From NCBI GenBank assembly GCA_043803405.1, contig JAZDKB010000004.1, positions 1 to 64,000 on the forward strand: 64,000 nt of DNA, read 5' to 3'. The translations under genes and the position numbers were made by a program. The DNA is from Spirochaetota bacterium. GTDB lineage: Bacteria > Spirochaetota > UBA4802 > JAFGDQ01. The notes under the pieces were generated by a model. That model was not told the origin of the DNA. It did no database searches and saw only the letters and a program-made list of their open reading frames with translations. Of the stretch, positions 17,015 to 29,820 are shown in pieces (the stretch's first letter is position 1; every line of letters starts with the position of its first letter).

Positions 17015-17575
17015 ATGGGGAAAATTATTTTCATAACAGGCGGGGCAAGGAGCGGCAAAAGCACCTTTGCCGAAAAGCTATTAAAGAACGAAGACAGCGT
17101 GGTTTACATTGCCGCAGGTATTGCCTTCGATAGCGAAATGAAGGACAGGATAGCAAGGCACAAAGAAAAACGCAATCCTGCATGGATAACGGTTGAAAAA
17201 TACAAAGACCTTGATATAATCTTAAAAGAGATCATAAAAGATAAAAAATTTATATTAATAGATTGTCTTACAATAATGGTTTCAAATTTAATGATACTTG
17301 AAAATGATATTGATTGGGATACAATTGACATTAAAACGGTTAATATTATAGAAGAAAATATTCTGGCGGAAATAAACAAGCTGCTTATTACGGTAAATGA
17401 TTTTCCCGGAGAATCTATAATAGTATCAAATGAAACCGGTATGGGCGTTGTCCCGCCCGCTCCGCTAGGACGCTATTACAGGGACATTGCAGGAAGAATA
17501 AACCAGGTTGTTGCCGCAGCAGCACATACGGCATATTTTATTGTTTCCGGAATACCCATGAAAATAAAGGGATGA
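17015..17575 (+). CDS. cobU: Adenosylcobinamide kinase / cobinamide-phosphate guanylyltransferase
   Basis: ITGGARSGKS, IDCLT and VSNETGMGVVP motifs. Confidence 0.95.
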   Translation: MGKIIFITGGARSGKSTFAEKLLKNEDSVVYIAAGIAFDSEMKDRIARHKEKRNPAWITVEKYKDLDIILKEIIKDKKFILIDCLTIMVSNLMILENDIDWDTIDIKTVNIIEENILAEINKLLITVNDFPGESIIVSNETGMGVVPPAPLGRYYRDIAGRINQVVAAAAHTAYFIVSGIPMKIKG

Positions 17576-17578
17576 TTT

Positions 17579-18322
17579 ATGCTTAAAATGTTTTTATTGC
17601 AGTTAAAGTTTTTAACCACAATTCCATTGCCGGTTAAGATTGAGTTCGATGAAAATAAATTCGCAAAGGGTGTAATATTTTCTCCGGTAGTCGGACTCAT
17701 AATCGGCCTTATCCTTGGCGGGACATTTATCCTTGTTAATCTGGCCGGGAAGCAGATTATTGCCGTGGTCTCAGTAGTTTTTGTCGGGATAATAATTACA
17801 GGCGGGCTTCATCTGGACGGCCTTGCAGATACATTTGACGGAATCTTCAGCAACCAGCCGAAAGAAAAGATACTTAAGATAATGAAGGATTCCAGGATAG
17901 GAACGAACGGCACTCTTGCACTAATAATGGATGTGATATTCAGGATAAGCCTGCTTTATTCGTTAAGCGAGCAGAATATGTTCGCGTATTTATGCATTAC
18001 GCCTGTTATATCAAGAATGAGTATTGCGTGGACTGCAGGGCTGGCATCCGGCACAAGAAAGGGGAGCATGGCCGGCGCGCTGGTTAAGCATACAGGATAC
18101 AGGGAGATTATTATTGCATCAGCAATTACGGCTTTCCTGAGCATTGCGTTTATCAGACAATTAACCTTAGTTGTCATTCCGGCAGTAATTCTTTTTGCAG
18201 TAATTTGCGAAAGATACGCCGAGAAAAAAATCGGCTGCATCTCGGGGGACATCATAGGCGCGGTTATCGAGATGACGGAAATCACAGTGCTTTTTGCACT
18301 ATTTATTTATGAATTGTTTTAA
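17579..18322 (+). CDS. cobS: Adenosylcobinamide-GDP ribazoletransferase
   Basis: TGGLHLDGLADTFDG, IMKDSRIG and GDIIGA motifs. Confidence 0.95.
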   Translation: MLKMFLLQLKFLTTIPLPVKIEFDENKFAKGVIFSPVVGLIIGLILGGTFILVNLAGKQIIAVVSVVFVGIIITGGLHLDGLADTFDGIFSNQPKEKILKIMKDSRIGTNGTLALIMDVIFRISLLYSLSEQNMFAYLCITPVISRMSIAWTAGLASGTRKGSMAGALVKHTGYREIIIASAITAFLSIAFIRQLTLVVIPAVILFAVICERYAEKKIGCISGDIIGAVIEMTEITVLFALFIYELF

Positions 18323-18387
18323 CACAGGTGTATTACCGATATGCTGCCTGTACATATTTAATTTATATGATATCAAGGTGATACGGT

Positions 18388-18981
18388 ATGTTTGAAATCG
18401 TACTGATACGTCATGCCGAGACAGACAATAACACTATGCACAAATTCTCAGGTATAACCGATGTGGGCCTGAACGATAATGGAAGGCAGCAGGCATTAAA
18501 ACTGGCTGATGCTCTTAAAGATGAAATTATCGATCACATATTTTCCAGCGATATGCGCAGATGCGTTGAGACTGGCAACGGCCTCAGGTGCGCGAACGAA
18601 AGAATCTTCACAAAAGAACTCCGTGAGATGAATTTCGGCAGATGGGAAAACCTTACTTACAAAGAGATCAAAGAAAGGTATCCTGACGATATTGAAATGT
18701 GGGAGCGCGACTGGACGGATTACGAAATCCCGGAAGGCGAAAGCTTTACCCGAATGAGCGCAAGAGTGATAAAAGAATTTGAGGATATTGTAAAAGTTAA
18801 AAGCAACGGAGCAAAAAAAATTGCCGTTGTGTCGCACAGCGGATGCATAAGAACGATACTCGGCCATTACATAATCGGATCAATAAAAGACAGCTGGAGA
18901 TTCCGCGTTGAGAATGCCGCTGTTACGAGACTCTCTGTAGATAAAGGATACTATTTCTTAAAATCCCTTAATGAAAAATAA
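18388..18981 (+). CDS. cobC: Alpha-ribazole phosphatase (histidine phosphatase family)
   Basis: LIRHAET, LREMNFG.WE, PEGES and SHSG motifs; follows cobS. Confidence 0.85.
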   Translation: MFEIVLIRHAETDNNTMHKFSGITDVGLNDNGRQQALKLADALKDEIIDHIFSSDMRRCVETGNGLRCANERIFTKELREMNFGRWENLTYKEIKERYPDDIEMWERDWTDYEIPEGESFTRMSARVIKEFEDIVKVKSNGAKKIAVVSHSGCIRTILGHYIIGSIKDSWRFRVENAAVTRLSVDKGYYFLKSLNEK

Positions 18982-19121
18982 TATTCCGGTATTTATTTAT
19001 GGCCAGGTACATTTGGGTTTATTGAATTGTCATGCGGATGTAAAATTATATTACAATATATTATTGAAAAAAAGTCAGTGTTGACGGTATTGTTTGTTGA
19101 TTATATCAGGAGTAATTAACC

Positions 19122-19697
19122 ATGTTCAAATTTATTAGGGAAAAAATATTTATAGACGATGTGGTTTGCCCATGGTGGCTCGCATATACATTTGATAACC
19201 GCATTCGAAAGTTTTTTCATAATCCGGATAAAATGTTCAGTAAATATATCAGGAAAGGGATGACAGTGCTGGATATCGGTTGCGGGATGGGCTACTTCTC
19301 TATTGGGATGGCTGCGTTTGTAGGCGACAAAGGCAAAGTCATTGCTCTCGATATTCAGGAAAAAATGCTTGAGGTAATGAAGAAACGGGCTGAAAAAGCC
19401 GGCATGCTGAAGCGAATAACTCCGCATCTAAGCACAAAGAAAGATCTTAAACTAAAGAAAAAAGTCGATTTTGCATTAAGTTTCTGGATGGTGCACGAAG
19501 TACCGGACATAAATATTTTTTTAAAGAATGTTTACAATACATTAAATAAACATGGAAGATATTTTATCGCTGAGCCTAAAATGCACACGTCTGAAAAATA
19601 TTTCAGCAATCTCGAAAGCCTTTGCCTGGCGACAGGTTTTCGCATAATAGACCGTCCGGAAGTATCATTAAGCCGTGCTGTGCTTCTGGAGAGATAA
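19122..19697 (+). CDS. Class I SAM-dependent methyltransferase
   Basis: VLDIGCGMGYF; VCPWW N-terminal motif. Confidence 0.85.
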   Translation: MFKFIREKIFIDDVVCPWWLAYTFDNRIRKFFHNPDKMFSKYIRKGMTVLDIGCGMGYFSIGMAAFVGDKGKVIALDIQEKMLEVMKKRAEKAGMLKRITPHLSTKKDLKLKKKVDFALSFWMVHEVPDINIFLKNVYNTLNKHGRYFIAEPKMHTSEKYFSNLESLCLATGFRIIDRPEVSLSRAVLLER

Positions 19698-19698
19698 A

Positions 19699-20934
19699 TT
19701 AATACAGATACAGCGGATGAGAGTCCGGGTTCTTGCCGAAGAATGTGACATCATCAACAATCTTTATTTTTTCCCCGCGGAGAAGCGCGTATAGCGTGCG
19801 TTCTATGCCAATGCCTCCGCCGAAAGTATCCGGGAAAAGTTGCCCGCCGTCCCGGCCTTTCATTGAAGCAAACTGAAGAAACGGCCCATACCCTCCAAGG
19901 TCGTTGATATTTGCGATATTACCGTCTTCTATTATCGGCCGCGCCGGAAGGACCTTGTTGTCAAGTATCCTTTCAACTATCGGCTCATAAAGCCATTCTC
20001 TTATGGCGCCTGATAATATTTCTTTTGCAGTCGACTGCTTCCCGGTTTTTGCATCAATGCTTTTTGCAAGCATATCATAGTTAAATACATTCTGCGATTG
20101 CACTTTTAGCGGGTCGGCTTTTTTCCCTTCAGTGAATAAGTACGGATAGACCAGGTCATAGTTTTCCCTTAGAAGGCCGGTAATCCAGAAGAACTGCGAG
20201 TCTGTAGACTGTCCTGCTTTTTCTTCGTGACTTTTCTGGCCGTATTTTTTTACGCATTCGTCCTTTTGAAAGCTCGGGAAAGGTGTTTTGGGTATTTCTA
20301 TCACAATGCCAAGATCCTTCAAATTCTGTGAGTTGATTTTATTGATCTCCTCACATGCATAAACGAGCATCCTTTCAAAAAAGTTTTTTATCTTTGTCAT
20401 GTCTTCGTTAAGGATGTCGGTTACATATTTTACTTTGCTATAATATTCGTCAAGAGTGACGTTCCTGTTGCGCTTAAGTTCAATATCCATCTGAGAAAAA
20501 TCGGCGAGGTATTTCCCGCGCTGGGCGCCGGTGGGGCTTTCTATCTCGAGCCTGATGTTTGGCGAATCTACGAATATGCCTTTTATGCGCGGGTTTGAGC
20601 ATGCAAGAAATTTGCTGTAAATCATGCTGTGCGTTGTAAGGTATGTGTGTCCTTTGTAGTCGATGGACGGCGTGTGTTCAATGTCGTGAGCAAGCGGGTC
20701 TGTTATTATGCTGAGCATTACTTTTTCTAAATTAAACAGGCCTTCTTTAACAAGGAACTGGTTCATGGAATTAACAAAGGTTGTCCGGATTGCCATCGCA
20801 TTGTAAAGATCATCCGATATCCATTTGCCGGAGTAATTTGATTTTATGTAGTCTTCGAAGGTTTCCCCGCCTTCATTTATTGCAGCCTGAAATCTGTAAA
20901 GGCTTTCGCCGATTATTTTAATTTTATCTTCCAT
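19699..20934 (-). CDS. Class II aaRS paralog without an anticodon domain, archaeal-type asparagine synthetase (AS-AR)-like
   Basis: SIITDPL, THSMIYSK, SPNIRLE...FSQMDIE (motif 2), EILSGAIREW and GGGIGIER (motif 3) resemble archaeal AS-AR/AsnRS2. Confidence 0.75.
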   Translation of the reverse strand: MEDKIKIIGESLYRFQAAINEGGETFEDYIKSNYSGKWISDDLYNAMAIRTTFVNSMNQFLVKEGLFNLEKVMLSIITDPLAHDIEHTPSIDYKGHTYLTTHSMIYSKFLACSNPRIKGIFVDSPNIRLEIESPTGAQRGKYLADFSQMDIELKRNRNVTLDEYYSKVKYVTDILNEDMTKIKNFFERMLVYACEEINKINSQNLKDLGIVIEIPKTPFPSFQKDECVKKYGQKSHEEKAGQSTDSQFFWITGLLRENYDLVYPYLFTEGKKADPLKVQSQNVFNYDMLAKSIDAKTGKQSTAKEILSGAIREWLYEPIVERILDNKVLPARPIIEDGNIANINDLGGYGPFLQFASMKGRDGGQLFPDTFGGGIGIERTLYALLRGEKIKIVDDVTFFGKNPDSHPLYLY

Positions 20935-21153
20935 ATATTTATCCCGATAGATTGCTTTTTGTCCGGCACATAATATTTTTCTTCTGGAATAATGTCAAAT
21001 AAAAGAATGACTAAAATTTACAATACTGTAATATTTGTTGTTTATTTTATATTGAACTTTATTATTGTGTTTGTAAAAAATGCTAAAATTATCCCTAAAT
21101 AGCTCTTGATATTAAATCATTTTACATTTATGGCTTTGTAATATTATTAGAAC

Positions 21154-21198
21154 TCAATTTTTAGCACTATTAACCGTTAAAAATGAATGTGACAGTGT
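21154..21198 (+). repeat. 45-bp element also present at 33123-33167 (39/45 identical)
   Basis: Direct alignment by eye; internal TTTTTAG/YTAAAAA stem. Confidence 0.75.
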
Positions 21199-21265
21199 AT
21201 TTGCAATACTTATTTGTTAAATAAATATTCGTCTTATGTATAATATTTAAGGATTTCTTTATATA

Positions 21266-24157
21266 ATGAAAGATATTACCGAAAAAAATTCCCGTGAGAT
21301 TTTAAACCTTATAAACAACAGAGAAATTTCCTGTGAAGAGCTGATGAGGGCTACTCTTGATCAGATCGCCAAATATGATCCGATTCTCGAAGCGTTCATT
21401 TCCATGTATGATGAGTCTTTGCTGCTGGAGCAGGCGAGGTCTAGCGACAGAAGGCGCAGCAACGGATCTCCGCTTAGCCCGATTGACGGCATTCCGGTTG
21501 CAGTAAAGGATAATATGCATTCGATCGGCATTCCGACAACATGCGCTTCGAGGATACTCGAAAACTATAATCCGCCTTATGATTCAACTGCCGTGAGGCT
21601 GATAAAAGAAAGCGGCGGCATTATTGTCGGCAAAACGAACATGGATGAGTTCGCGATGGGATCGACATGCGAGACTTCGGCATTTAATCATACGCGTAAT
21701 CCGTGGGACATACATCGTGTGCCGGGAGGCTCATCCGGCGGCTCCGCAGTAGCTGTCGCGTCCGGTATGGTTCCGCTTGCGCTCGGGAGCGACACAGGCG
21801 GATCGATACGCCAGCCTGCCGCGTTCTGCGGGATAACCGGGCTTAAGCCGACATACGGGCTTGTGTCGCGCTACGGTCTTGCCGCGTACGCGTCTTCGCT
21901 TGACCAGATAGGGCCTATGTCGCGCGATGTTTACGGGAACGCGGCGCTTCTCGGCATTATAAGCGGCCATGACACGAAAGACTCCACTTCACTTGAAGCT
22001 GCAAAGGCCGGTTATACGGCAGAGCTTGACGGGAACATTAAGGGCGTTCGGGTTGCCGTAGTCCGGGAGCTTGCCGGCGAAGGGGTGTCGCGTCCGGTCC
22101 AGGAACAATTCTCCAAAGCAATAAAAACCATGGAAGGGCTGGGCGCTGCCGTGAGCGAGATTTCATTATCCTGCATAAAATATGTTATTTCTGCTTATTA
22201 CTTAATTGCGACTGCAGAGGCATGCTCCAATTTGTCGCGCTACGACGGAGTGAAGTACGGGTTCAGGAGCGGCAAGCAGAGCGACTTCCAGGAAATGCTT
22301 TTTACGACGCGCTCTTACGGGTTCGGCAAGGAAGTGAAGAAACGGATTTTGCTCGGAAATTTTGTGCTTTCATCCGGGTACTATGATGAGTATTACAGAA
22401 AGGCACTTAAAGTCAGGGCATTCATAAGAGAAGAAATGAAGGATGTTTTTAAATCGTTCGATGTGATCGTAATGCCGGCTGCTCCGGACATCGCGTTCCT
22501 TCACGGCGAGAGCCAGAGAGATGTCATGAAAATGTATCTTTCGGATATTACAACTGTACTCGCAAACCTGGCCGGGCTTCCGGCAATTTCTGTTCCGTGC
22601 GGCATTGCTTCCGGTATGCCGTCGGGCTTCCAGCTTATGGGAAGGCCCCTTGACGAGCAGACGCTTTTACGGATCGCATCCGCGTTCGAGGCCGGGCAGG
22701 AAAGGCATATTCCGGACCTTAAAAAGATTCTGGAAGCGCATGCGCATATTGTCGGCGCTGTAAGCAAAGACAACACTGAGGCCGCGACAGATGCGACGCA
22801 TGTTTATACTAAGGATAACATCAGAAAGATTTCGCATTTATATAATGCAAGGACGAAAACACTAACAGAACGCGTTTTCTGCAATGAGCTTGAAGCAATG
22901 GTAGGCAGGAATGTTTTGCTTGCAGGCTGGATACACAGAAAGAAAAACCTGGGTGGTATAGAGTTCTACGACCTCAGGGACAGGACAGGCTTTACCCAGC
23001 TTGTTATTGAAGGTGAAAAGCCTGTTGAGCGCATCACGGCAGAGAGCGTAGTTGAAGTAAGGGGCAAGGTGACAAAAGAGGAACGGAGCCCTTATGGAAA
23101 CATTGAAATAAAAGTAGAGAGCATTAATGTAATTACTCATGCTGAAAGCAGTATACCGGTAAGCATAAACAATCCGGCGGACAATGTGAACCTGTCGACC
23201 ATACTAGACAACAGAAATGTTTCAATCCGGAACCCCGGTATTTTGTCTGCGTTCAGGGTACAGTCCGAAATTGTGAAACTATTTGCCGAATACTTAAGGC
23301 AGCAGAGTTTCACTGAGATAAAAAGCCCCAAGATCATATCTTCCGGTACTGAAGGCGGCACGAATATTTTTGAAGTAAAATATTTCGACCGTGTTGCATA
23401 CCTGGCGCAATCGCCGCAATTTTATAAACAGATAATGGTAGGCAGCGGACTGGAAAGAGTGTTCGAGATTGGCCCTGTGTTCAGGGCAGAGCATCACGAC
23501 ACCATCAGGCATTTGAACGAATATATAAGCCTGGACTTTGAGATGGGATTCATACGCGATGAACAGGATGTCATTGACATGCAGGAAAACCTGATTAAAT
23601 ATATCTTCCAAAATATTAAAATTAAATTTAAGGATGATGTGAACATGCCTGCTTTGTTCCTGGAAGTGCCTGATAAAATTCCGCGCGTGCATTTCCTTGA
23701 AGCTATGGACATAGTGCAGTCGATGGGAGTCAGGGATATGGAAGAGGGCGATATTTCGCCTGCTGGCGAAAAGGCGCTCTGCGATTATTTTGAGAAAAAG
23801 AAGAATTCTTCTTTTGTATACGTGATCGGGTACCCTGTTAAAAAAAGACCCATGTACACAATGCCGGACGAACGGCTGCCCGGGTACACGAGGAGCTTCG
23901 ACCTTATTTACAGGGGGATAGAGATAACCACAGGCGGACAGCGTATCCATGACTATCACCAGTTAAGGGAAAATATCGTGGAGTTCGGTTTTAATCCGGG
24001 CGAGTACAGGGATTATCTTTCCATATTTAAATACGGAATGCCGCCTCACGGCGGGCTCGGCATGGGGCTGGAGCGGCTTACTATGAAGATATGCAATCTG
24101 AAAAATATTCGCGAGGCGTCATTGTTCCCGAGGGATATTAACAGGATTTCACCGTAG
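21266..24157 (+). CDS. gatA-aspS: GatA (about aa 1-476) fused through a ~58-aa linker to an archaeal-type non-discriminating aspartyl-tRNA synthetase (about aa 535-963)
   Basis: Amidase motifs [38 protein letters not shown] and SNLSRYDG; AspRS OB fold [35 protein letters not shown] and [15 protein letters not shown]. One open frame throughout. Confidence 0.93.
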
Positions 24158-24199
24158 GTAAATATTGATTGACGGATTTATTTTTAATGATTATTAAAA

Positions 24200-24472
24200 A
24201 TGATGCGATTCGAATGGGATAAATAAAAAGCAAAAGATAATCATACGAAACATCGTATATCTTTTGATGAAGCAGTTACAGTGTTTTATGATCCGTTATC
24301 GGCAACTTTTGATGATCCGGATCATTCAATTAATGAGCATAGATGGATAATTATAGGTTTTTCATCCCGTGGACGCCTGGTTGTAGTATCCTTTACCGAA
24401 AGAAGGGAAATAATTCGAATTATAAGCGCCCGTCCTGCGACGGCGCACGAAAGGAAACGACATGAAAATTAA
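24200..24472 (+). pseudogene. brnT: BrnT toxin with an in-frame TAA at codon 9 (24224-24226)
   Basis: Translates as MMRFEWDK*KAKDNHTKHRISFDEAVTVFYDP...DPDHS..EHRW..IG...IRIISARPAT..ERKRHE. Confidence 0.85.
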
Positions 24473-24722
24473 AGCAAAAAGGAATGTTGATGATTTACGG
24501 CCGGAGTATAATTTTGATTATTCAAAAGCTGTTCGCGGTAAATACGTAAAACGTTTACTGGATGAAGGGGCAAATGTTGTTGTGCTTGATCCGGATATAG
24601 CTAAGGCTTTCGGCAACTCGGCTGATGTAAATGACGCATTAAGATTGCTGCTTGATATTACAAGTTCAACACGCAGGATAACAATTCGTTCAAATATAAG
24701 CCATAATAAACGTCGTCGTTAA
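24462..24722 (+). CDS. brnA: BrnA-type antitoxin
   Basis: DLRPEYNFDYSKAVRGKY and VVLDPDIAKAF..S..VNDALR motifs; overlaps the brnT 3' end. Confidence 0.8.
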   Translation: MKIKAKRNVDDLRPEYNFDYSKAVRGKYVKRLLDEGANVVVLDPDIAKAFGNSADVNDALRLLLDITSSTRRITIRSNISHNKRRR

Positions 24723-24739
24723 TTAATATTTTGTCAGAG
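24676..24739 (+). other. Possible degenerate integron attC site
   Basis: TAACAATTCGTTCAA at 24679-24693 matches the start of the aadA-type attC as recalled; distal CGTTAAT and GTCAGAG sit at plausible L' and R' positions. Confidence 0.4.
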
Positions 24740-24788
24740 CTTGTACAAAATATAAAGCTGATCATGAAGAACTCCTGAACAATATATT

Positions 24789-26561
24789 ATGCTGAAAAAA
24801 CCAAAGATTAACATAGACAACCTGATCGAGCTTGCTTCGTTTGAAGTAAAGCCCGAAGAAAAACAGCAGTTCGTGAAAGAACTGGACGATTTTCTGGAAT
24901 ACGCCCGCGTAATAAACGAGGCATCTGTCGCGGATGTAAATCCCGCAAGCCATGCTGTGGACAGGAAAGCATATATGCGCGACGATACAAACAGCGCGTG
25001 GGATAAGCTTGACCTTTTACTCGGGAACGGGCCTGCTCTTCAGGGTACAAGCTACCTGGTGCCGCCGCAGGGAAGGAGCGGCGCAGGCACGGCTTCAGAA
25101 GAGAACGGGAACAGGGCCGCGGTTGCGGAAGCGGATTATGAGGCAGTGATCGGGCTCGAAGTGCACGCCCAGTTAAGAACGCGCACTAAGCTGTTCTGCG
25201 CATGTTCAACGCAGTTCGGCCGGGAGCCGAACGCGAACACGTGCCCCGTGTGCTCCGGGCATCCGGGCGTCCTGCCTGTGCTTAACAAAGAAGCAGTCAG
25301 CATGGCGATTCTCGCAGGGCTTGCGGCAGGATCAACTATAAACAAGCGTTCAGTCTTTGCGCGCAAGAATTATTTTTATCCCGACCTGCCGAAAGGCTAC
25401 CAGATATCCCAGTTCGAGGAACCCATCTGCTCCGGAGGGTTTATCGAGATAGAGATAAACGGTTCTGTAAAGAAAGTAAGGCTTAACCGCATACACATGG
25501 AAGAAGACGCCGGCAAGATGGTACACGTCGGTGCGCCCGGTATATGGGGATCGAAGGCGAGCGCCGTAGACTTTAACCGTTCGAGTGTGCCTCTCATAGA
25601 GATCGTAACAGAGCCGGACATGTCATCGGCCGAAGAAGCGCGCGAATACGTTGTAATGCTGCGCGCCATGCTTGTGTCGCTCGGGATATGCGACGGCAAC
25701 ATGGAAGAGGGAAGCCTGCGCTGCGACGCGAACGTTTCAATACGCCCAAAGGGAGCAAAGAAGCTCGGAACAAAGGTCGAGATTAAAAACATGAACTCGT
25801 TTAAGGCAATCGAAAGAGCTCTCGATTATGAAATCACACGGCTAAATAAAATGGTGAAGGCAGGCGCAAGAATAGGGCAGGAGACAAGGCTGTGGGACGA
25901 AAGCGGCCAGAAAACATATTCCATGAGGAGCAAAGAAGAATCGCACGACTACAGGTATTTCCCAGATCCCGATCTTTTGCCCATTGAACTAAGCGACGAA
26001 TGGATAGAAAAAGTCCGGGGAAAACTGACACATTCTCCGCTTACAAGAAAGCGTAAATATATTTCGGAATATTCTTTCTCAGGGAAGGAAGCGCGCCTCT
26101 TTATGATAAATCCTTCGTATGCAGATTTCTTTGAGGCTGTCCTTGCCGGTTATGATAATCCAAGGGCATTAGCGAACCTGTTTTTTACTGAGATATTGTC
26201 TTTAACCGGCAACATAGAAGAACTCAATATTAAGCCAGACGATCTGGCCATGCTTCTTAAAAAGATAGATTCCGGCGAGATCAGCGGTAAGATAGCAAAG
26301 AATGTTATCAAGAAAGCATTCTCTTCCGGTAAAGGACTGATCCAGATCATCGGTGAAGAGAACATAAAGCAGGAAACCGATCCTAAAGTAATTGAAGATA
26401 TAATAGATAAAATTATCGCCGACAATCAGTCCCAGGTCAATGATTACCGGAGCGGCAAGACAAAGATTTTCGGATTCTTTGTGGGCGAAGCAATGAAGGC
26501 AGCAAAAGGAAAGGCGAGCCCCGCGCTGGTAAATGAGATTTTGAAGAAGAAGCTCGGTTGA
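24789..26561 (+). CDS. gatC-gatB: GatC (about aa 1-94) fused through a Gly/Ala-rich linker to GatB (about aa 116-590)
   Basis: GatC-like N-terminus (LIELA...MRDD...LLGNGP...YLVP); GatB motifs VIGLEVHAQL, RKNYFYPDLPKGYQISQ, HMEEDAGK, LRCDANVS, YRYFPDPDL and FFVGEAMK. Confidence 0.93.
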   Translation: MLKKPKINIDNLIELASFEVKPEEKQQFVKELDDFLEYARVINEASVADVNPASHAVDRKAYMRDDTNSAWDKLDLLLGNGPALQGTSYLVPPQGRSGAGTASEENGNRAAVAEADYEAVIGLEVHAQLRTRTKLFCACSTQFGREPNANTCPVCSGHPGVLPVLNKEAVSMAILAGLAAGSTINKRSVFARKNYFYPDLPKGYQISQFEEPICSGGFIEIEINGSVKKVRLNRIHMEEDAGKMVHVGAPGIWGSKASAVDFNRSSVPLIEIVTEPDMSSAEEAREYVVMLRAMLVSLGICDGNMEEGSLRCDANVSIRPKGAKKLGTKVEIKNMNSFKAIERALDYEITRLNKMVKAGARIGQETRLWDESGQKTYSMRSKEESHDYRYFPDPDLLPIELSDEWIEKVRGKLTHSPLTRKRKYISEYSFSGKEARLFMINPSYADFFEAVLAGYDNPRALANLFFTEILSLTGNIEELNIKPDDLAMLLKKIDSGEISGKIAKNVIKKAFSSGKGLIQIIGEENIKQETDPKVIEDIIDKIIADNQSQVNDYRSGKTKIFGFFVGEAMKAAKGKASPALVNEILKKKLG

Positions 26562-26580: not shown

Positions 26581-27102
26581 TTATTTCAATTTTTTTACTT
26601 CCGGTTTTTTGTCCTTTAATACAAATGCCGGTTTTATTGATTCGATTTTGCCAGCCAGGTCTTCCTTAAATATCCTGTAAACAAGAACAGCTGAATAATT
26701 TTCCTTATAATATTCGAAAGCGATCTGTCCGTATCGAAGGAATTCCCGCATCTCCTGTATCAGGTTCTTTTTTATTTCGTCGGAATTCTGAATGTCATTC
26801 GCATTCTTAATGTTTGATAGTTTGTAATTATAATTAAGATTATACTTTATAAGGTTAGTGATTACTTTGTTGTCCATCTCCGCTTTTGCGTTTTTAAGCG
26901 CACTCTCACGCGAAGCTACGAGCCCTCTAGCCTCTTTATCCGGCATCCCTGTAATGATCACCTGGTAATGATCCCTGTCGAGAAAACCTTCGGTAGTGTA
27001 ATCGTTTAAAAGCCTGTTGGTATCGTAATATTTTATTGTGCAGTTAAGAGATGCTGAAAGAATAACTGCAGCGAAAAGAAGCATTGTATAAAAATATTTC
27101 AT
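26581..27102 (-). CDS. Hypothetical lipoprotein
   Basis: Hydrophobic signal ending SLNC; TEGFLDRDHYQVIITG motif. Confidence 0.65.
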   Translation of the reverse strand: MKYFYTMLLFAAVILSASLNCTIKYYDTNRLLNDYTTEGFLDRDHYQVIITGMPDKEARGLVASRESALKNAKAEMDNKVITNLIKYNLNYNYKLSNIKNANDIQNSDEIKKNLIQEMREFLRYGQIAFEYYKENYSAVLVYRIFKEDLAGKIESIKPAFVLKDKKPEVKKLK

Positions 27103-27420: not shown

Positions 27421-29820
27421 TTATTTCCCCTTCAGCATATTAATTATATCCTGAACCTTGTCGCGGTTTGCGTGATCGGGTTTCAGGGATAACAGCTTTT
27501 CATAATTGTAAACCGCTTTGTCCTTATCCTTTAAATTCCTGTAATAAATAGTACCGAGTTCCTCATAAGCTTCCCAGTACCTGCTTTCAATCTTGGTAGC
27601 TCTTTCGAACGATTTTACCGCGTCACTATACATTTGCTTGTCCCTGTATGTCAATCCCAGAAAAAAATGCGCCTTTGCGTCAACGGGATTAATATTGAGA
27701 GATGTGTTGTATTCTTCCACAGCTTCATCGTACATTTTGGTTTCCCTGAAAGCTTTGGCAAGATTAAAATGAGCATCGAAGGATTTAGGGTCATTCTGCG
27801 TGGCGCTTTTATATTGTTGAATGGCCTTATCATTAAGGCCGTTGTTGAGGTAAAGATTACCCAGGTTAATATAGGCTTTCGTGTAATGAGGATTTGCTGT
27901 TATCGATTTCTGATAAAAGGCAATTGCCTTATCCTGGTTGTTGCTCGCTTCGTAAGTCTTTCCAAGTTCGTATAATGTAGGCGCATCATCTGCCTTTAGT
28001 TCCAGAGCCCTGTTGAACAGGCCTACAGCTTCGGTATAATTTTTCTGTATCGACTGGATAAGCCCCAGGTTGAAATACGCCTGGAAATACTCGCGGTCCA
28101 GCTCAATTGCTTTCTGATAGAACTGAGATGCGTTGTTATATGACTTCATCTCGTGATATGTTTCCGCAACTTTAAAAACAGTGTCAGGATTATCCGGTCT
28201 CAGCTTTAAATCTTCAGTAAAATGGCTGAGCGCTTCGTTGTAATTTTTACTTTTTAAATAAATATCTCCGAGATTAAAGTGCGCCCTGTCAAGTTTCGGA
28301 TCCTGTTGCAGCGATGTGTTCAGATCCTTGATCGCCTGCCTGTTATCGTTAAGCTTAATGTTTGCAAGCCCTCTTGAATAGTATGCCTTCGGGAAAACAG
28401 GCTGCTCCTTAACCGCCCTGTCGAACGCCTTTACCGCTTCGCCGTATTTGCTTTCCACATAATAGAGGAGCCCCAGCCTGTAAAATGCATCCGCGTTTTT
28501 CGGGTTAGCAATGATCGCGCTCTGATACGATTTTTTTGCTTCATCGGTTATCCCGCCATGGTCGTATATTCTACCGCGCCAGTAATGGGAATGGTCGTCG
28601 TTGCTGTCTATATCCACAGCTTTCTTGTAAGCGTTAAGCGCTGCATCGTATTTCTTTTCTGCTCTGAGCTTGTCGCCAAGCTCTCTCCATTTCGTAGCTT
28701 CGGACTTGTCATCCTTAGGAGGCTTTGGCGGGATCTTGGGCCCTGTATCGTCTGTAAGGTCGTCCTTTTTAGGAAGCTGCTTATCAACCTTGGGCAGCTT
28801 ATTTTCGGGCGGAGCAACTTTATCCGTTTCCGGCAGCGCGGGTTTGTCATTCACTGCAACTTTGTTAGCGCTGTTCAGCATTTTTAACGCAAGCGCGTAT
28901 TTGTCGCGCAGATTTTTATCCTTGCTGTTGTAGCCCAGAGCCTTTCTGTAATAGTCAGCAGCCTTTGCCCAGTCGCCAAGCTTTGCGTAAACATCGCCCA
29001 GCCTTTCGAGAGCTGCCGCATCATTCGGATCCACTTTAAGCGCTTTTTCAAAAGAAGCGATCGCGTCGTCGGTTTTATCCATCCTTAAGTTTGCATTACC
29101 CTGACCCACGTAATATTTTGACTTATTAGGATTTAAGGCAATGGCTTTATCAAAGGCCTGTTTTGCTTTATTAAATTCGCCTGTCTCCATATATACGCGG
29201 CCAAGATTATAATAGCCTTCCGGATCTTTCGGGTTCGCCTTAATCCCTTCCATGATAATAGCAACAGCCCCTTTCTTGTCCCCTTTTCTTAAGCGTTGTT
29301 TTGCTATGTTCCAGTAGCTCTCCGGATCTCTAGGAGCTAACTTTCTTGCTTTATTATATTCATCAAGCGCCTTCTTTAACTTTTCCTGATCGTCGAATAC
29401 ATTGCCTAGCCTGTTATATGCCTTCGGGTATTTGGGAAAATATTTTTTTGCAAGCTCAAGCGTGGCGATCGCATTATCATAGTCGCCTTTCAGGGCGTAC
29501 GCGTGCCCAAGCTCGTTCAATGCCTCGTAGTTCTGCGGATCGATCGCAAGCGCCTTTTTAAAGTACTCAATTGCTTTGTCAAGGTCGCCCATGTCCTTAT
29601 AAAGGCTGCCTATCTTGACCAGTATGCCGGTATTCCTCGGATCAGTCTCCAGGATCTTTTTATAAAGCTCAATCTGTTGCAGTCGCAGGTCCCGTATGTC
29701 GCCTGTGCTGTCTCCGGTGCCGCCTCTGAAAAGAAAATATCCGCCTCCCAGAAGAAGAGCCAGAATAAGCACCCCGGCAGCTCCCCATTTAAGTCCTTTA
29801 TATCTGTCGTAGTATGTCAT
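27421..29820 (-). CDS. Membrane-anchored multi-TPR protein
   Basis: N-terminal TM helix; two long TPR arrays separated by a Pro/Lys-rich linker. Confidence 0.85.
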   Translation of the reverse strand: MTYYDRYKGLKWGAAGVLILALLLGGGYFLFRGGTGDSTGDIRDLRLQQIELYKKILETDPRNTGILVKIGSLYKDMGDLDKAIEYFKKALAIDPQNYEALNELGHAYALKGDYDNAIATLELAKKYFPKYPKAYNRLGNVFDDQEKLKKALDEYNKARKLAPRDPESYWNIAKQRLRKGDKKGAVAIIMEGIKANPKDPEGYYNLGRVYMETGEFNKAKQAFDKAIALNPNKSKYYVGQGNANLRMDKTDDAIASFEKALKVDPNDAAALERLGDVYAKLGDWAKAADYYRKALGYNSKDKNLRDKYALALKMLNSANKVAVNDKPALPETDKVAPPENKLPKVDKQLPKKDDLTDDTGPKIPPKPPKDDKSEATKWRELGDKLRAEKKYDAALNAYKKAVDIDSNDDHSHYWRGRIYDHGGITDEAKKSYQSAIIANPKNADAFYRLGLLYYVESKYGEAVKAFDRAVKEQPVFPKAYYSRGLANIKLNDNRQAIKDLNTSLQQDPKLDRAHFNLGDIYLKSKNYNEALSHFTEDLKLRPDNPDTVFKVAETYHEMKSYNNASQFYQKAIELDREYFQAYFNLGLIQSIQKNYTEAVGLFNRALELKADDAPTLYELGKTYEASNNQDKAIAFYQKSITANPHYTKAYINLGNLYLNNGLNDKAIQQYKSATQNDPKSFDAHFNLAKAFRETKMYDEAVEEYNTSLNINPVDAKAHFFLGLTYRDKQMYSDAVKSFERATKIESRYWEAYEELGTIYYRNLKDKDKAVYNYEKLLSLKPDHANRDKVQDIINMLKGK

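Follow-up and report, generated by a model that had tools for sequence, protein, structure and literature searches.

Natural GatA-AspRS and GatC-GatB fusions of Spirochaetota: a likely two-chain, covalently pre-assembled asparagine transamidosome

Introduction

Transamidosomes are thought to keep mischarged Asp-tRNA-Asn from reaching the ribosome, and in those studied so far the complex is either transient or held together by tRNA. The Asn-transamidosome of Thermus is scaffolded by tRNA, and to our knowledge this organism possesses no asparagine synthetase. The complex of Thermus thermophilus (3KFU) is non-covalent, its proteins being encoded by four separate genes. In the accessible portion of PMC4206432, binding of GatCAB to the Thermus AspRS is described to stabilise the amidotransferase, AsnRS and GlnRS are both assigned to the Thermus genome, and a lack of AsnA/AsnB is stated for Bdellovibrio only. 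Clostridial operons combine the gene for an archaeal-type AspRS2 with gatCAB; in the one compared here (L024), aspS2, gatC, gatA and gatB follow one another as four individual ORFs.

Covalent arrangements are also on record. NCBIfam model NF009460 (PRK12820; 723 positions), which we compared by name and length, denotes a fusion of AspRS with amidotransferase subunit C. As it catalogues a natural fusion of AspRS to a GatCAB subunit, the locus described below is not alone in coupling the two steps covalently; a paper naming this fusion was not found in the literature searched. Mycobacterium smegmatis is viable with a laboratory GatC-GatA fusion, which was obtained by selection and increases mistranslation; according to its authors, ~500 gatCAB sets contain no natural gatC-gatA fusion (accessible portion of PMC7541841).

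Here we analyse a locus within a 64,000-nucleotide stretch of DNA (the window) from a Spirochaetota bacterium, in which the four protein modules of the Thermus complex are joined at the gene level, GatA with AspRS and GatC with GatB. By the name of NF009460, the partners there are AspRS and GatC in that order, so that both partner and order differ from the present case; compared with the M. smegmatis mutant, the present fusions are natural, conserved and involve other partners. No description of this architecture was found in the literature searched, in line with the suspicion of the initial annotation. NCBIfam lists a model for an AspRS-GatC fusion, as mentioned above. The locus is apparently an undescribed, but real and conserved, variant of a known system.

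Results

Four proteins in two open reading frames

The initial annotation had proposed that the four proteins of the indirect Asn-tRNA route are encoded by two ORFs, gatA-aspS followed by gatC-gatB, with a class II aaRS paralog transcribed divergently. The genes lie where it had placed them, the divergent paralog is real, and the domains are supported by Pfam and, in the case of GatA, AspRS and GatB, by NCBIfam (Table 1).

Table 1. Features of the fused locus and its surroundings (window positions).
Feature	Position	Strand	Description
AS-A-like gene	19699-20934	-	411 aa; class II aaRS catalytic-core paralog, anticodon-binding domain absent
Divergent intergenic region, AS-A-like gene/gatA-aspS	20935-21265	.	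331 bp, AT-rich
gatA-aspS fusion ORF	21266-24157	+	963 aa; GatA, ~55-residue linker, archaeal-type, putatively non-discriminating AspRS
GatA (glutaminase) domain	21266-22705	+	residues 1-480 of 963-aa fusion
GatA/AspRS inter-domain linker	22706-22867	+	residues 481-534
AspRS domain	22868-24157	+	residues 535-963 plus stop codon; archaeal-type, no GAD domain
Insert between fused genes	24158-24788	+	631 bp; BrnT-type toxin remnant and small ORF
BrnT-type toxin gene	24200-24472	+	in-frame TAA at 24224-24226 (codon 9), sequence read directly
ORF overlapping BrnT-type gene	24462-24722	+	86 aa; antitoxin candidate
gatC-gatB fusion ORF	24789-26561	+	590 aa
GatC domain	24789-25073	+	residues 1-95 of 590-aa fusion
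GatC/GatB linker	25074-25133	+	residues 96-115, ~20 residues, Gly/Ala/Ser-rich; between the GatC and GatB matches
GatB domain	25134-26561	+	residues 116-590 plus stop codon; catalytic part and YqeY-like tRNA-binding tail

The Pfam matches of the longer chain are Amidase (residues 25-468, 495 bits), tRNA_anti-codon (550-623) and tRNA-synt_2 (644-957, 286 bits). The GatA domain passes the NCBIfam equivalog gatA (TIGR00132; 591.5 bits, cut-off 481.1) and the AspRS domain the aspartate--tRNA(Asn) ligase model NF003483 (549.5 bits, cut-off 353), while a second aspartate--tRNA(Asn) ligase model is also passed by this chain (435.9, cut-off 368.4). The shorter chain comprises Pfam GatC at residues 21-91 (33.4 bits, cut-off 23), GatB_N at 120-407 (410 bits) and GatB_Yqey at 446-589 (137 bits), and reaches 649 bits with the GatB equivalog NF004014 (cut-off 414). 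Its GatC domain scores 38-41 bits with TIGR00135 (gatC), below the cut-off of 47.1, and is the only gatC match of the genome. Neither fused frame contains an internal stop codon. The locus thereby departs from GatCAB as a set of three separate subunits, GatA being joined to AspRS and GatC to GatB.

Residues K81, S156 and S180 of the GatA domain, presumably the Lys/cis-Ser/Ser triad of the amidase, are kept in 15 of 16 aligned fused homologs. The AspRS domain has the AspRS2 architecture, i.e. ~430 residues with an N-terminal OB fold and a class II core from which the GAD insertion is absent. Its best solved relative is the Thermus AspRS2 of the 3KFU transamidosome, a 422-aa protein (1N9W/3KFU) with which residues 536-963 align end to end (E 5.8e-105). 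His557 and Pro609 occupy the positions of W26 and K85 of the T. kodakarensis enzyme; Thermus AspRS2 carries the same residues, and each is found in 14 of 16 fused sequences. At these anticodon-loop positions, His and Pro presumably relax tRNA specificity. We infer from these features that the AspRS domain is of the non-discriminating type and would aspartylate tRNA-Asn. According to the accessible portion of PMC4206432, the GAD domain is the marker that separates the bacterial from the archaeal type of AspRS.

The GatA/AspRS linker begins with a variable part, which is followed at residues 512-526 by the motif Y-[ST]-K-x-x-[IV]-x-x-[IV]-S-x-x-Y, conserved in the alignment of fused homologs. 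An AF2 model of the fusion, poor overall (mean pLDDT 65, pTM 0.51) and unreliable in its placement of the domains, assigns pLDDT values below 50 to residues 494-513 and predicts helices at 486-498 and 516-527.

DNA around and between the fused genes

The divergent intergenic region falls into a stretch of low GC content (0.32 in the 21000-21499 bin). It contains one sigma-70-like site on the minus strand (20998-20970; 11/12 matches), the number of such sites not exceeding that in shuffled sequences, and an Rfam search of the region, T-box included, gave no match at E<=1. The initial annotation had overlooked that gatA-aspS and gatC-gatB are not contiguous. The 631-bp insert carries a BrnT-type gene matching Pfam BrnT_toxin with 89 bits over 24227-24469, its ORF being interrupted at codon 9. 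The overlapping 86-aa ORF, which had zero matches in family searches, may encode the BrnT antitoxin. The insert is missing from relatives L013 and L014, where 2 and 12 bp, respectively, separate the fused genes.

Conservation and origin of the fusions

The initial annotation had suggested that the architecture be sought across genomes. Among the 120 matches listed, at least 67 clusters are full-length GatA-AspRS fusions and at least seven are truncated ones, with 44-83% identity; among the 120 GatB matches listed, 92 are GatC-GatB forms (581-630 aa). At least 30 GatA-AspRS/GatC-GatB pairs reside on contigs of identical size. Within the phylum, the fusion occurs in 30 of the 301 genomes sampled; relatives do not always have separate genes. 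gatA-aspS adjoins gatC-gatB in L013, L014, G067, G083 and G044, and the two fused genes are located on different contigs in G056.

These data also bear on how literally the fusions are to be taken. The host genome assembly is a 54-contig draft, which might raise the suspicion of assembly or frameshift artefacts, but this reading has next to no probability, as the full-length clusters stem from assemblies of NCBI, JGI, ENA and Logan, some of them from contigs 4.8 and 9.5 Mb in length, and as the fusion recurs in the genomes of the phylum; conservation of the architecture already refutes it. Alternatively, the fusion could exist at the gene level only, with polypeptides that are cleaved or separately translated into GatA, AspRS, GatC and GatB. 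The variable and, by prediction, partly disordered linkers would be compatible with such a scenario. Yet we consider it very improbable: in none of 16 aligned fused sequences does the AspRS domain begin with Met, nor is there any conserved internal start, the open frame is kept across three phyla and down to 44% identity, and a conserved motif lies inside the linker. Covalent tethering of the synthetase to the amidotransferase, as proposed initially, holds at the gene level and is conserved across many independent assemblies.

In a FastTree phylogeny, all 42 rows of fused AspRS group in a single clade with SH-like support of 100, to the exclusion of the 78 unfused rows; judged from this tree, the fused AspRS domains have a single origin. 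Their sister group consists of unfused Spirochaetota AspRS2 sequences (weak support, 68), followed as next-nearest outgroup by sequences of the clostridial aspS2-gatC-gatA-gatB operons (support 86). As the fused genes are ordered A-S and then C-B, they are not derivable by simple loss of stop codons in an operon of clostridial order. In Spirochaetales, the unfused locus L029 is arranged as gatA-gatB-aspS2.

Genome inventory points to a dedication to asparagine

A survey of asnS, glnS, aspS and gatCAB genes, likewise suggested at the outset, detected AsnRS (649 bits), GlnRS (785 bits, above cut-off) and a bacterial AspRS in the host genome (G000). In this profile search gatA, gatB and gatC yielded one match each, all within the fusions, and a second copy of any of the three was not found. 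The separate housekeeping GatCAB that the initial annotation had envisaged is thus not seen in the host, which has GlnRS, whereas the idea fits other fusion lineages. Among 13 fusion genomes, many of which are close kin (five of one genus) and several only 71-87% complete, so that a missing GlnRS is no proof of its absence, five possess GlnRS and have the fused GatA as the only one above cut-off (G000, G083, G056, G067, G175), and the eight in which GlnRS was not found (G044, G002, G147, G112, G161, G096, G168, G087) each carry an additional, unfused GatA. This pattern supports a machine dedicated to asparagine, as had been proposed. The presumed substrate fits as well: the single-copy tRNA-Asn(GUU) of the host (C24:1627-1701; 5' strand UCCCCUG paired with CGGGGGA, then G73) has the U1-A72 pair, which the accessible portion of PMC4206432 describes as required for the two-step pathway.

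It is conceivable that the fused enzyme instead acts as a general GatCAB for both Asn-tRNA and Gln-tRNA, to which the AspRS domain is merely attached. It is, after all, the only GatCAB of the host genome, bacterial GatCABs in general act on either substrate in vitro (accessible portion of PMC4206432), and the tRNA-Gln genes also appear to start with U1. However, GlnRS exceeds the cut-off not only in the host but across most of its order (57 of 61 genomes), and the second, ordinary GatA of all eight fusion genomes without detected GlnRS would be needless if the fused enzyme handled Gln. We therefore regard a general GatCAB as improbable. The inventories support a fused module that serves asparagine only, the Gln-tRNA of the host being made by GlnRS. 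As GlnRS would make Gln-tRNA and AsnRS would provide a parallel, direct route to Asn-tRNA, the fused machine would represent a tRNA-dependent route to asparagine or Asn-tRNA, like that of Thermus and Deinococcus.

The AS-A-like gene and other potential sources of asparagine

For the divergently transcribed 411-aa protein, the initial annotation had noted a likeness to archaeal asparagine synthetase A (AS-AR). This stands as a distant likeness, strengthened by the gene neighbourhood, but does not amount to family membership. Pfam recognises tRNA-synt_2 only (38 bits), and the scores with two NCBIfam asparagine synthetase A models (128.7 bits, cut-off 309; 58.8, cut-off 368) are, like those with every other AS-A model of this collection, below cut-off, for which reason we file the protein as AS-A-like rather than as an AS-A member. 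Its best solved relatives are 1NNH (E 3.5e-14) and 3P8T (E 6.4e-13), which identify it as a distant relative of AS-AR. Both share with it a class II core devoid of the anticodon-binding domain and conserved substrate and ATP motifs, but the 411-aa protein is ~115 residues longer, owing to family-specific inserts and an N-terminal extension. R128 and R379, the arginines of class II motifs 2 and 3, are invariant in all 12 aligned family sequences, as are the TDPL, SMI..K, Q148/D150/E152 and R312 columns.

The family occurs mainly in Spirochaetota, and databases name its members only 'hypothetical' or 'amino acid--tRNA ligase-related'. Among the 16 genomic sites listed, the gene adjoins asnS at eight and the fused gene at four (12/16 together); it also adjoins asnS in G067 and L014. 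In G044, asnS itself immediately precedes the fused operon; in L014 it lies close by. A supply of free Asn is the best explanation for the close association of the 411-aa family with asnS. Judged from motifs and gene neighbourhood, the gene product is most likely a tRNA-independent asparagine synthetase of the AS-A type that feeds AsnRS.

With this protein and an AsnB-family protein, the host has two asparagine synthetase candidates, a difference from Thermus. Could the fused machine nevertheless be the sole asparagine route, as in Thermus and Deinococcus, the two candidates doing other things? The combination of AsnRS, GlnRS, GatCAB and archaeal AspRS2 is common to these organisms (accessible portion of PMC4206432), AsnA (TIGR00669) was not found in the host genome, the AS-A-like protein misses the AS-A cut-offs, and the AsnB-family protein stays below the cut-off of the AsnB equivalog (NF006949; 341 versus 499) and also resembles exopolysaccharide-type amidotransferases. 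On the other hand, the latter protein passes TIGR01536 with 506 bits, and the AS-A-like protein retains all class II catalytic motifs and is linked to asnS in the manner described. A sole route is accordingly unlikely, and the fused machine is probably one of several redundant asparagine routes. As AsnRS, the AsnB-family protein and the AS-A-like gene are also present in the genome, a need for the fused machine is not demonstrable.

Discussion

Taken together, we favour, with a probability of about 0.72, the view that the locus encodes a two-chain, covalently pre-assembled transamidosome that serves asparagine only. In this machine, AspRS, the C-terminal domain of the 963-aa chain, would attach aspartate to tRNA-Asn, and the mischarged acceptor end would then pass to GatB to be activated with ATP, by analogy to the established chemistry of the family. 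GatA at the N-terminus of the same chain as AspRS would hydrolyse glutamine and supply ammonia to GatB, generating Asn-tRNA-Asn, and GatC, normally the belt of GatA to GatB, is fused to the N-terminus of GatB. Since AspRS is a class II homodimer, the likely particle would be (GatA-AspRS)2(GatC-GatB)2 with ~3100 residues. Tethering would impose a 1:1 ratio and hold Asp-tRNA-Asn off the ribosome.

As to the history of this machine, the balance is even for a scenario in which the covalent asparagine-only transamidosome arose once in Spirochaetota and was transferred to Planctomycetota (Ca. Uabimicrobium) and Chrysiogenales. The Gln-tRNA function would have been lost or never performed, which would oblige lineages lacking GlnRS to keep a second, conventional GatCAB, and the catalytic triad of the fused GatA would be gone in one sublineage. 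Loss of the triad suggests a further shift in this sublineage to a scaffold-only or ammonia-dependent role.

A hard-wired natural transamidosome would show that selection can favour permanent coupling, and the fused lineage would show that GatCAB can specialise on one of its two substrates. It would also represent a compact two-gene module for tRNA-dependent asparagine formation, potentially suited to transfer into other hosts or to structural studies. With the 411-aa family, a so far unstudied branch of aaRS-derived amino-acid synthetases centred on Spirochaetota comes into view, for which the gene neighbourhood suggests a testable function. The two-chain arrangement is common to many uncultured spirochaetes, and, if true, a covalent transamidosome devoted to asparagine would constitute a natural experiment on why transamidosomes exist, be it for channelling or for fidelity.

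The fused genes and their surroundings

The initial annotation had proposed two fusions, GatA-AspRS and GatC-GatB, and both open reading frames were indeed found at the coordinates given, as was that of the divergent 411-aa protein (see table). The GatA part of the first is complete (Amidase, residues 25–468; TIGR00132, 591.5 bits versus a cut-off of 481.1) and is joined through a linker of ~55 residues to a complete AspRS of the archaeal type, with an OB fold at residues 550–623 and a class II core at 644–957, which scores 549.5 bits with NF003483 ‘aspartate--tRNA(Asn) ligase’ (cut-off 353). In the second, a GatC domain match (residues 21–91) is followed by a linker of ~20 residues rich in Gly, Ala and Ser and by a complete GatB including its YqeY-like tail (NF004014, 649 bits versus 414). 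The start of the AspRS domain lacks a Met in all 16 aligned fused proteins, and the linker in this alignment ends in the conserved pattern Y-[ST]-K..[IV]..[IV]S..Y. An AF2 model of the 963-aa chain, based on the 16-row alignment, was too poor for judging domain packing (mean pLDDT 65, pTM 0.51).

Features of the fused locus and its flanks (positions in the window)
Feature	Position	Strand	Remarks
cobU (adenosylcobinamide kinase), cobS, cobC-like alpha-ribazole phosphatase, SAM methyltransferase	17015–19697	+	upstream genes
AS-A-like protein, 411 aa	19699–20934	-	weak tRNA-synt_2 match; asparagine synthetase A match below cut-off
GatA-AspRS, 963 aa	21266–24157	+	GatA, linker, archaeal-type AspRS
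BrnT-type toxin gene	within 24158–24788		Pfam 89 bits; in-frame TAA at codon 9
86-aa ORF	within 24158–24788		overlaps BrnT-type gene; no family match
GatC-GatB, 590 aa	24789–26561	+	GatC, linker, GatB
173-aa ORF	26581–27102	-	downstream of gatC-gatB; no family match
799-aa protein	27421–29820	-	downstream of gatC-gatB; almost wholly TPR repeats

The fused genes are not contiguous in the window, as 631 bp carrying the BrnT-type gene lie between them. This insert is absent from two compared loci of relatives, L013 and L014, where the gaps are 2 and 12 bp. Most likely it interrupts what was ancestrally an operon of two genes, so gatC-gatB may need its own promoter here. A scan for promoters and terminators returned no more sites than in shuffled sequence. 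Rfam had no match in the whole window at gathering thresholds and none in the leader (20850–21350) at E≤1; thus, no T-box was detected, unlike in the Clostridium acetobutylicum operon, which has one. The window contains no tRNA genes. The upstream cob genes, whose phosphatase match lies slightly under its cut-off, form a cobalamin lower-ligand attachment cluster that bears no relation to the fused locus.

Conservation and origin of the fusions

A protein search recovered the same fusion repeatedly. Among the 120 matches listed from 5.8 billion proteins, 67 are full-length (935–1011 aa, coverage at least 97%, 44–83% identity) and carry the Amidase, OB and class II domains, and seven more are truncated forms. 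GatC-GatB forms (581–630 aa) make up 92 among the 120 GatB matches listed, and at least 30 pairs of both fusions could be matched by shared contig size. The fused proteins stem from NCBI, JGI, ENA and Logan assemblies, and their hosts, where named, are Spirochaetota/Spirochaetes MAGs, Candidatus Uabimicrobium amorphum (on a 9.5-Mb contig) and Chrysiogenales. The sequencing runs listed for the window comprise two DNA runs of one study (6–7% of sampled words) and no RNA; the question of whether the junctions are genuine is answered by conservation of the fusion across assemblies.

Among 301 species genomes sampled evenly across the phylum, the complete fusion is encoded as a single open frame in 27 and interrupted by contig ends in three more; the remainder have an ordinary GatA of ~480–500 aa. 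By sampled family, it occurs in 4/4 genomes of f1, 8/8 of f8, 4/6 of f22 and 4/4 of f37, and within f4 in genera g8 and g22 only. The two fused genes adjoin at five sites in relatives (L013, L014, G067, G083 and G044) and lie on separate contigs in genome G056.

One divergent fused branch, at 44–46% identity (P0073; G087:C30:131424-134225), has lost the catalytic signature of GatA: Ala stands in place of the Lys, GGSSGGS is missing and GKN replaces GGS. This domain scores 301.7 bits against the gatA cut-off of 481.1 and may serve as a scaffold only. Genome G087 (87% complete) also encodes a separate intact GatA and GatB; GlnRS and AsnRS were not found in it.

To trace the origin of the fusion we relied on one quick FastTree tree of the AspRS domain alone, with 120 rows (38 fused, i.e. 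every second one plus outliers from 70 available, 4 truncated fused and 78 unfused). The 42 rows with the fusion together form a single clade (SH-like support 100) that contains no unfused row. Its sister, with a weak support of 68, is the unfused AspRS2, the archaeal-type non-discriminating AspRS, of Spirochaetales, Treponema and Spirochaetaceae, followed by clostridial AspRS2 as next outgroup (support 86). A Clostridium locus (L024) has the separate genes aspS2-gatC-gatA-gatB and a Spirochaetales locus (L029) the order gatA-gatB-aspS2, both unlike the fused order gatA-aspS followed by gatC-gatB. Thus, the fused order required rearrangement rather than mere loss of stop codons.

Probable dedication to asparagine

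Over its whole length, the AspRS domain can be aligned with the full non-discriminating AspRS2 of Thermus thermophilus (1N9W, also contained in the transamidosome structure 3KFU; E 5.8e-105) and therefore lacks a GAD insertion. Residues His557 and Pro609 occupy the positions of W26 and K85 in the T. kodakarensis enzyme, which in Thermus AspRS2 are likewise His and Pro; substitution by His or Pro at these sites presumably relaxes discrimination, and no relevant paper on the W26H and K85P mutations was found in open full text (PMC, bioRxiv). The single tRNA-Asn(GUU) gene of the genome has G73 and the U1-A72 pair, which is needed for the two-step pathway according to PMC4206432.

The window's genome, a 3.98-Mb draft in 54 contigs with 94% completeness, yields one match each for gatA, gatB and gatC, all within the fusions. 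A weak standalone gatC candidate (C19:233706-233948; tblastn, E 0.02–0.5) had no match to the gatC model and was dismissed. Of the genes whose inventory the initial annotation had called for, asnS (649 bits), glnS (785 bits) and a bacterial-type aspS farther along the window's contig are present, and a further gatCAB copy is not. Consequently, the separate housekeeping GatCAB for glutamine that had been envisaged is absent from this genome, where GlnRS takes over that job. AsnRS and GlnRS each exceed their cut-offs in 57 of the 61 sampled genomes of the order, irrespective of the fusion.

A comparison of 13 fusion-bearing genomes extends this picture. In five (G000, which is the window's own, G083, G056, G067 and G175), GlnRS is present and the fused GatA is the only one over the cut-off, whereas the other eight (G044, G002, G147, G112, G161, G096, G168 and G087) gave no GlnRS match and each have an extra unfused GatA of ~450–550 aa, accompanied by an unfused GatB in the two inspected for it (G044 and G087). 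This contrast recurs within families f8 (G175 versus seven others) and f22 (G056 versus G087); the 13 genomes are related, five belonging to one genus, and several are 71–87% complete, so that GlnRS may still be encoded where no match was obtained. Most simply read, this pattern means that Gln-tRNA is not a product of the fused enzyme.

The AS-A-like neighbour

The divergent 411-aa protein has as best solved relatives the archaeal asparagine synthetases A 1NNH (E 3.5e-14) and 3P8T (6.4e-13). When 1.84 billion representatives were searched exhaustively without a profile, no more than 118 matched at E≤0.001, 23 of them at E≤1e-30. Clustered at 90%, the family members form a compact group, nearly all of 411 aa with 66–84% identity and mostly from Spirochaetota, annotated as ‘hypothetical’ or ‘amino acid--tRNA ligase-related’. 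The class II core motifs are all invariant in the family and its ~300-aa relatives. Of 16 sites in 15 of the 61 genomes of the order, the gene lies directly upstream of asnS at eight and adjoins the fused gene divergently at four, all in f1 and including the window; coordinates gave no placement for the remaining four. Two further pairings with asnS occur in G067 and L014, the latter having the order asnS, AS-A-like gene, 200-aa ORF and divergent fused operon, and in G044 asnS lies directly upstream of the fused operon. Relatives, motifs and neighbourhood thus support an AS-A-type role, i.e. a putative asparagine synthetase feeding AsnRS.

Genome G164 has two copies of this gene (C1:111852-113084 and C41:8650-9882), only the latter adjoining asnS; its best match to the fused protein is weak (E 1.4e-25), with no GatA-sized match evident. 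A 418-aa divergent ORF at L013, considered as a homolog, is instead a LuxR-type regulator.

AsnA was not found in the window's genome. An AsnB-family protein passes TIGR01536 (506 bits) and falls below the AsnB equivalog cut-off (341 versus 499). In locus L010 (C18:207449-212140), its gene (640 aa) lies between those for a YbaK-type Cys-tRNA(Pro) deacylase and an M90 peptidase. Since the protein also scores 468 bits against the XrtA/PEP-CTERM amidotransferase model (cut-off 817), it is uncertain whether it acts as a true asparagine synthetase.

Proposed mechanism and relation to known fusions

Drawing on established knowledge of these families, we propose that the AspRS domain would mischarge tRNA-Asn, and that GatB would activate the mischarged product and then amidate it with ammonia supplied by the GatA domain on the same chain as AspRS. 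Dimerisation of AspRS would yield a 2:2 particle. Assembly of the Thermus transamidosome is tRNA-dependent, and the covalent tether would stand in for this non-covalent assembly.

Searches of open full text (~8.1 million papers in PMC and 0.36 million preprints in bioRxiv) found no description of either fusion and no true occurrence of their compound names; an earlier description in subscription journals may exist. The accessible part of PMC7541841 describes a laboratory GatC-GatA fusion and no natural one among ~500 gatCAB sets; those of PMC9437257 and PMC4206432 show no relevant fusion. Three metagenomic proteins of ~590 aa (P0095, P0099 and P0113) combine Amidase and GatC Pfam domains, which suggests that fusions of GatC and GatA do occur in nature despite that count. 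NCBIfam already catalogues a different covalent link between AspRS and GatCAB, the curated model NF009460, known here by its size of 723 positions and its name, ‘bifunctional aspartyl-tRNA synthetase/aspartyl/glutamyl-tRNA amidotransferase subunit C’; no paper on such a fusion was found in the same open full text.

Taken together, the locus is a real, conserved asparagine transamidosome variant, set within an asparagine gene neighbourhood and probably dedicated to asparagine. The sequences themselves can be found in public databases, labelled simply GatA and GatB; what appears to be new is the architecture and the specialisation that it implies.
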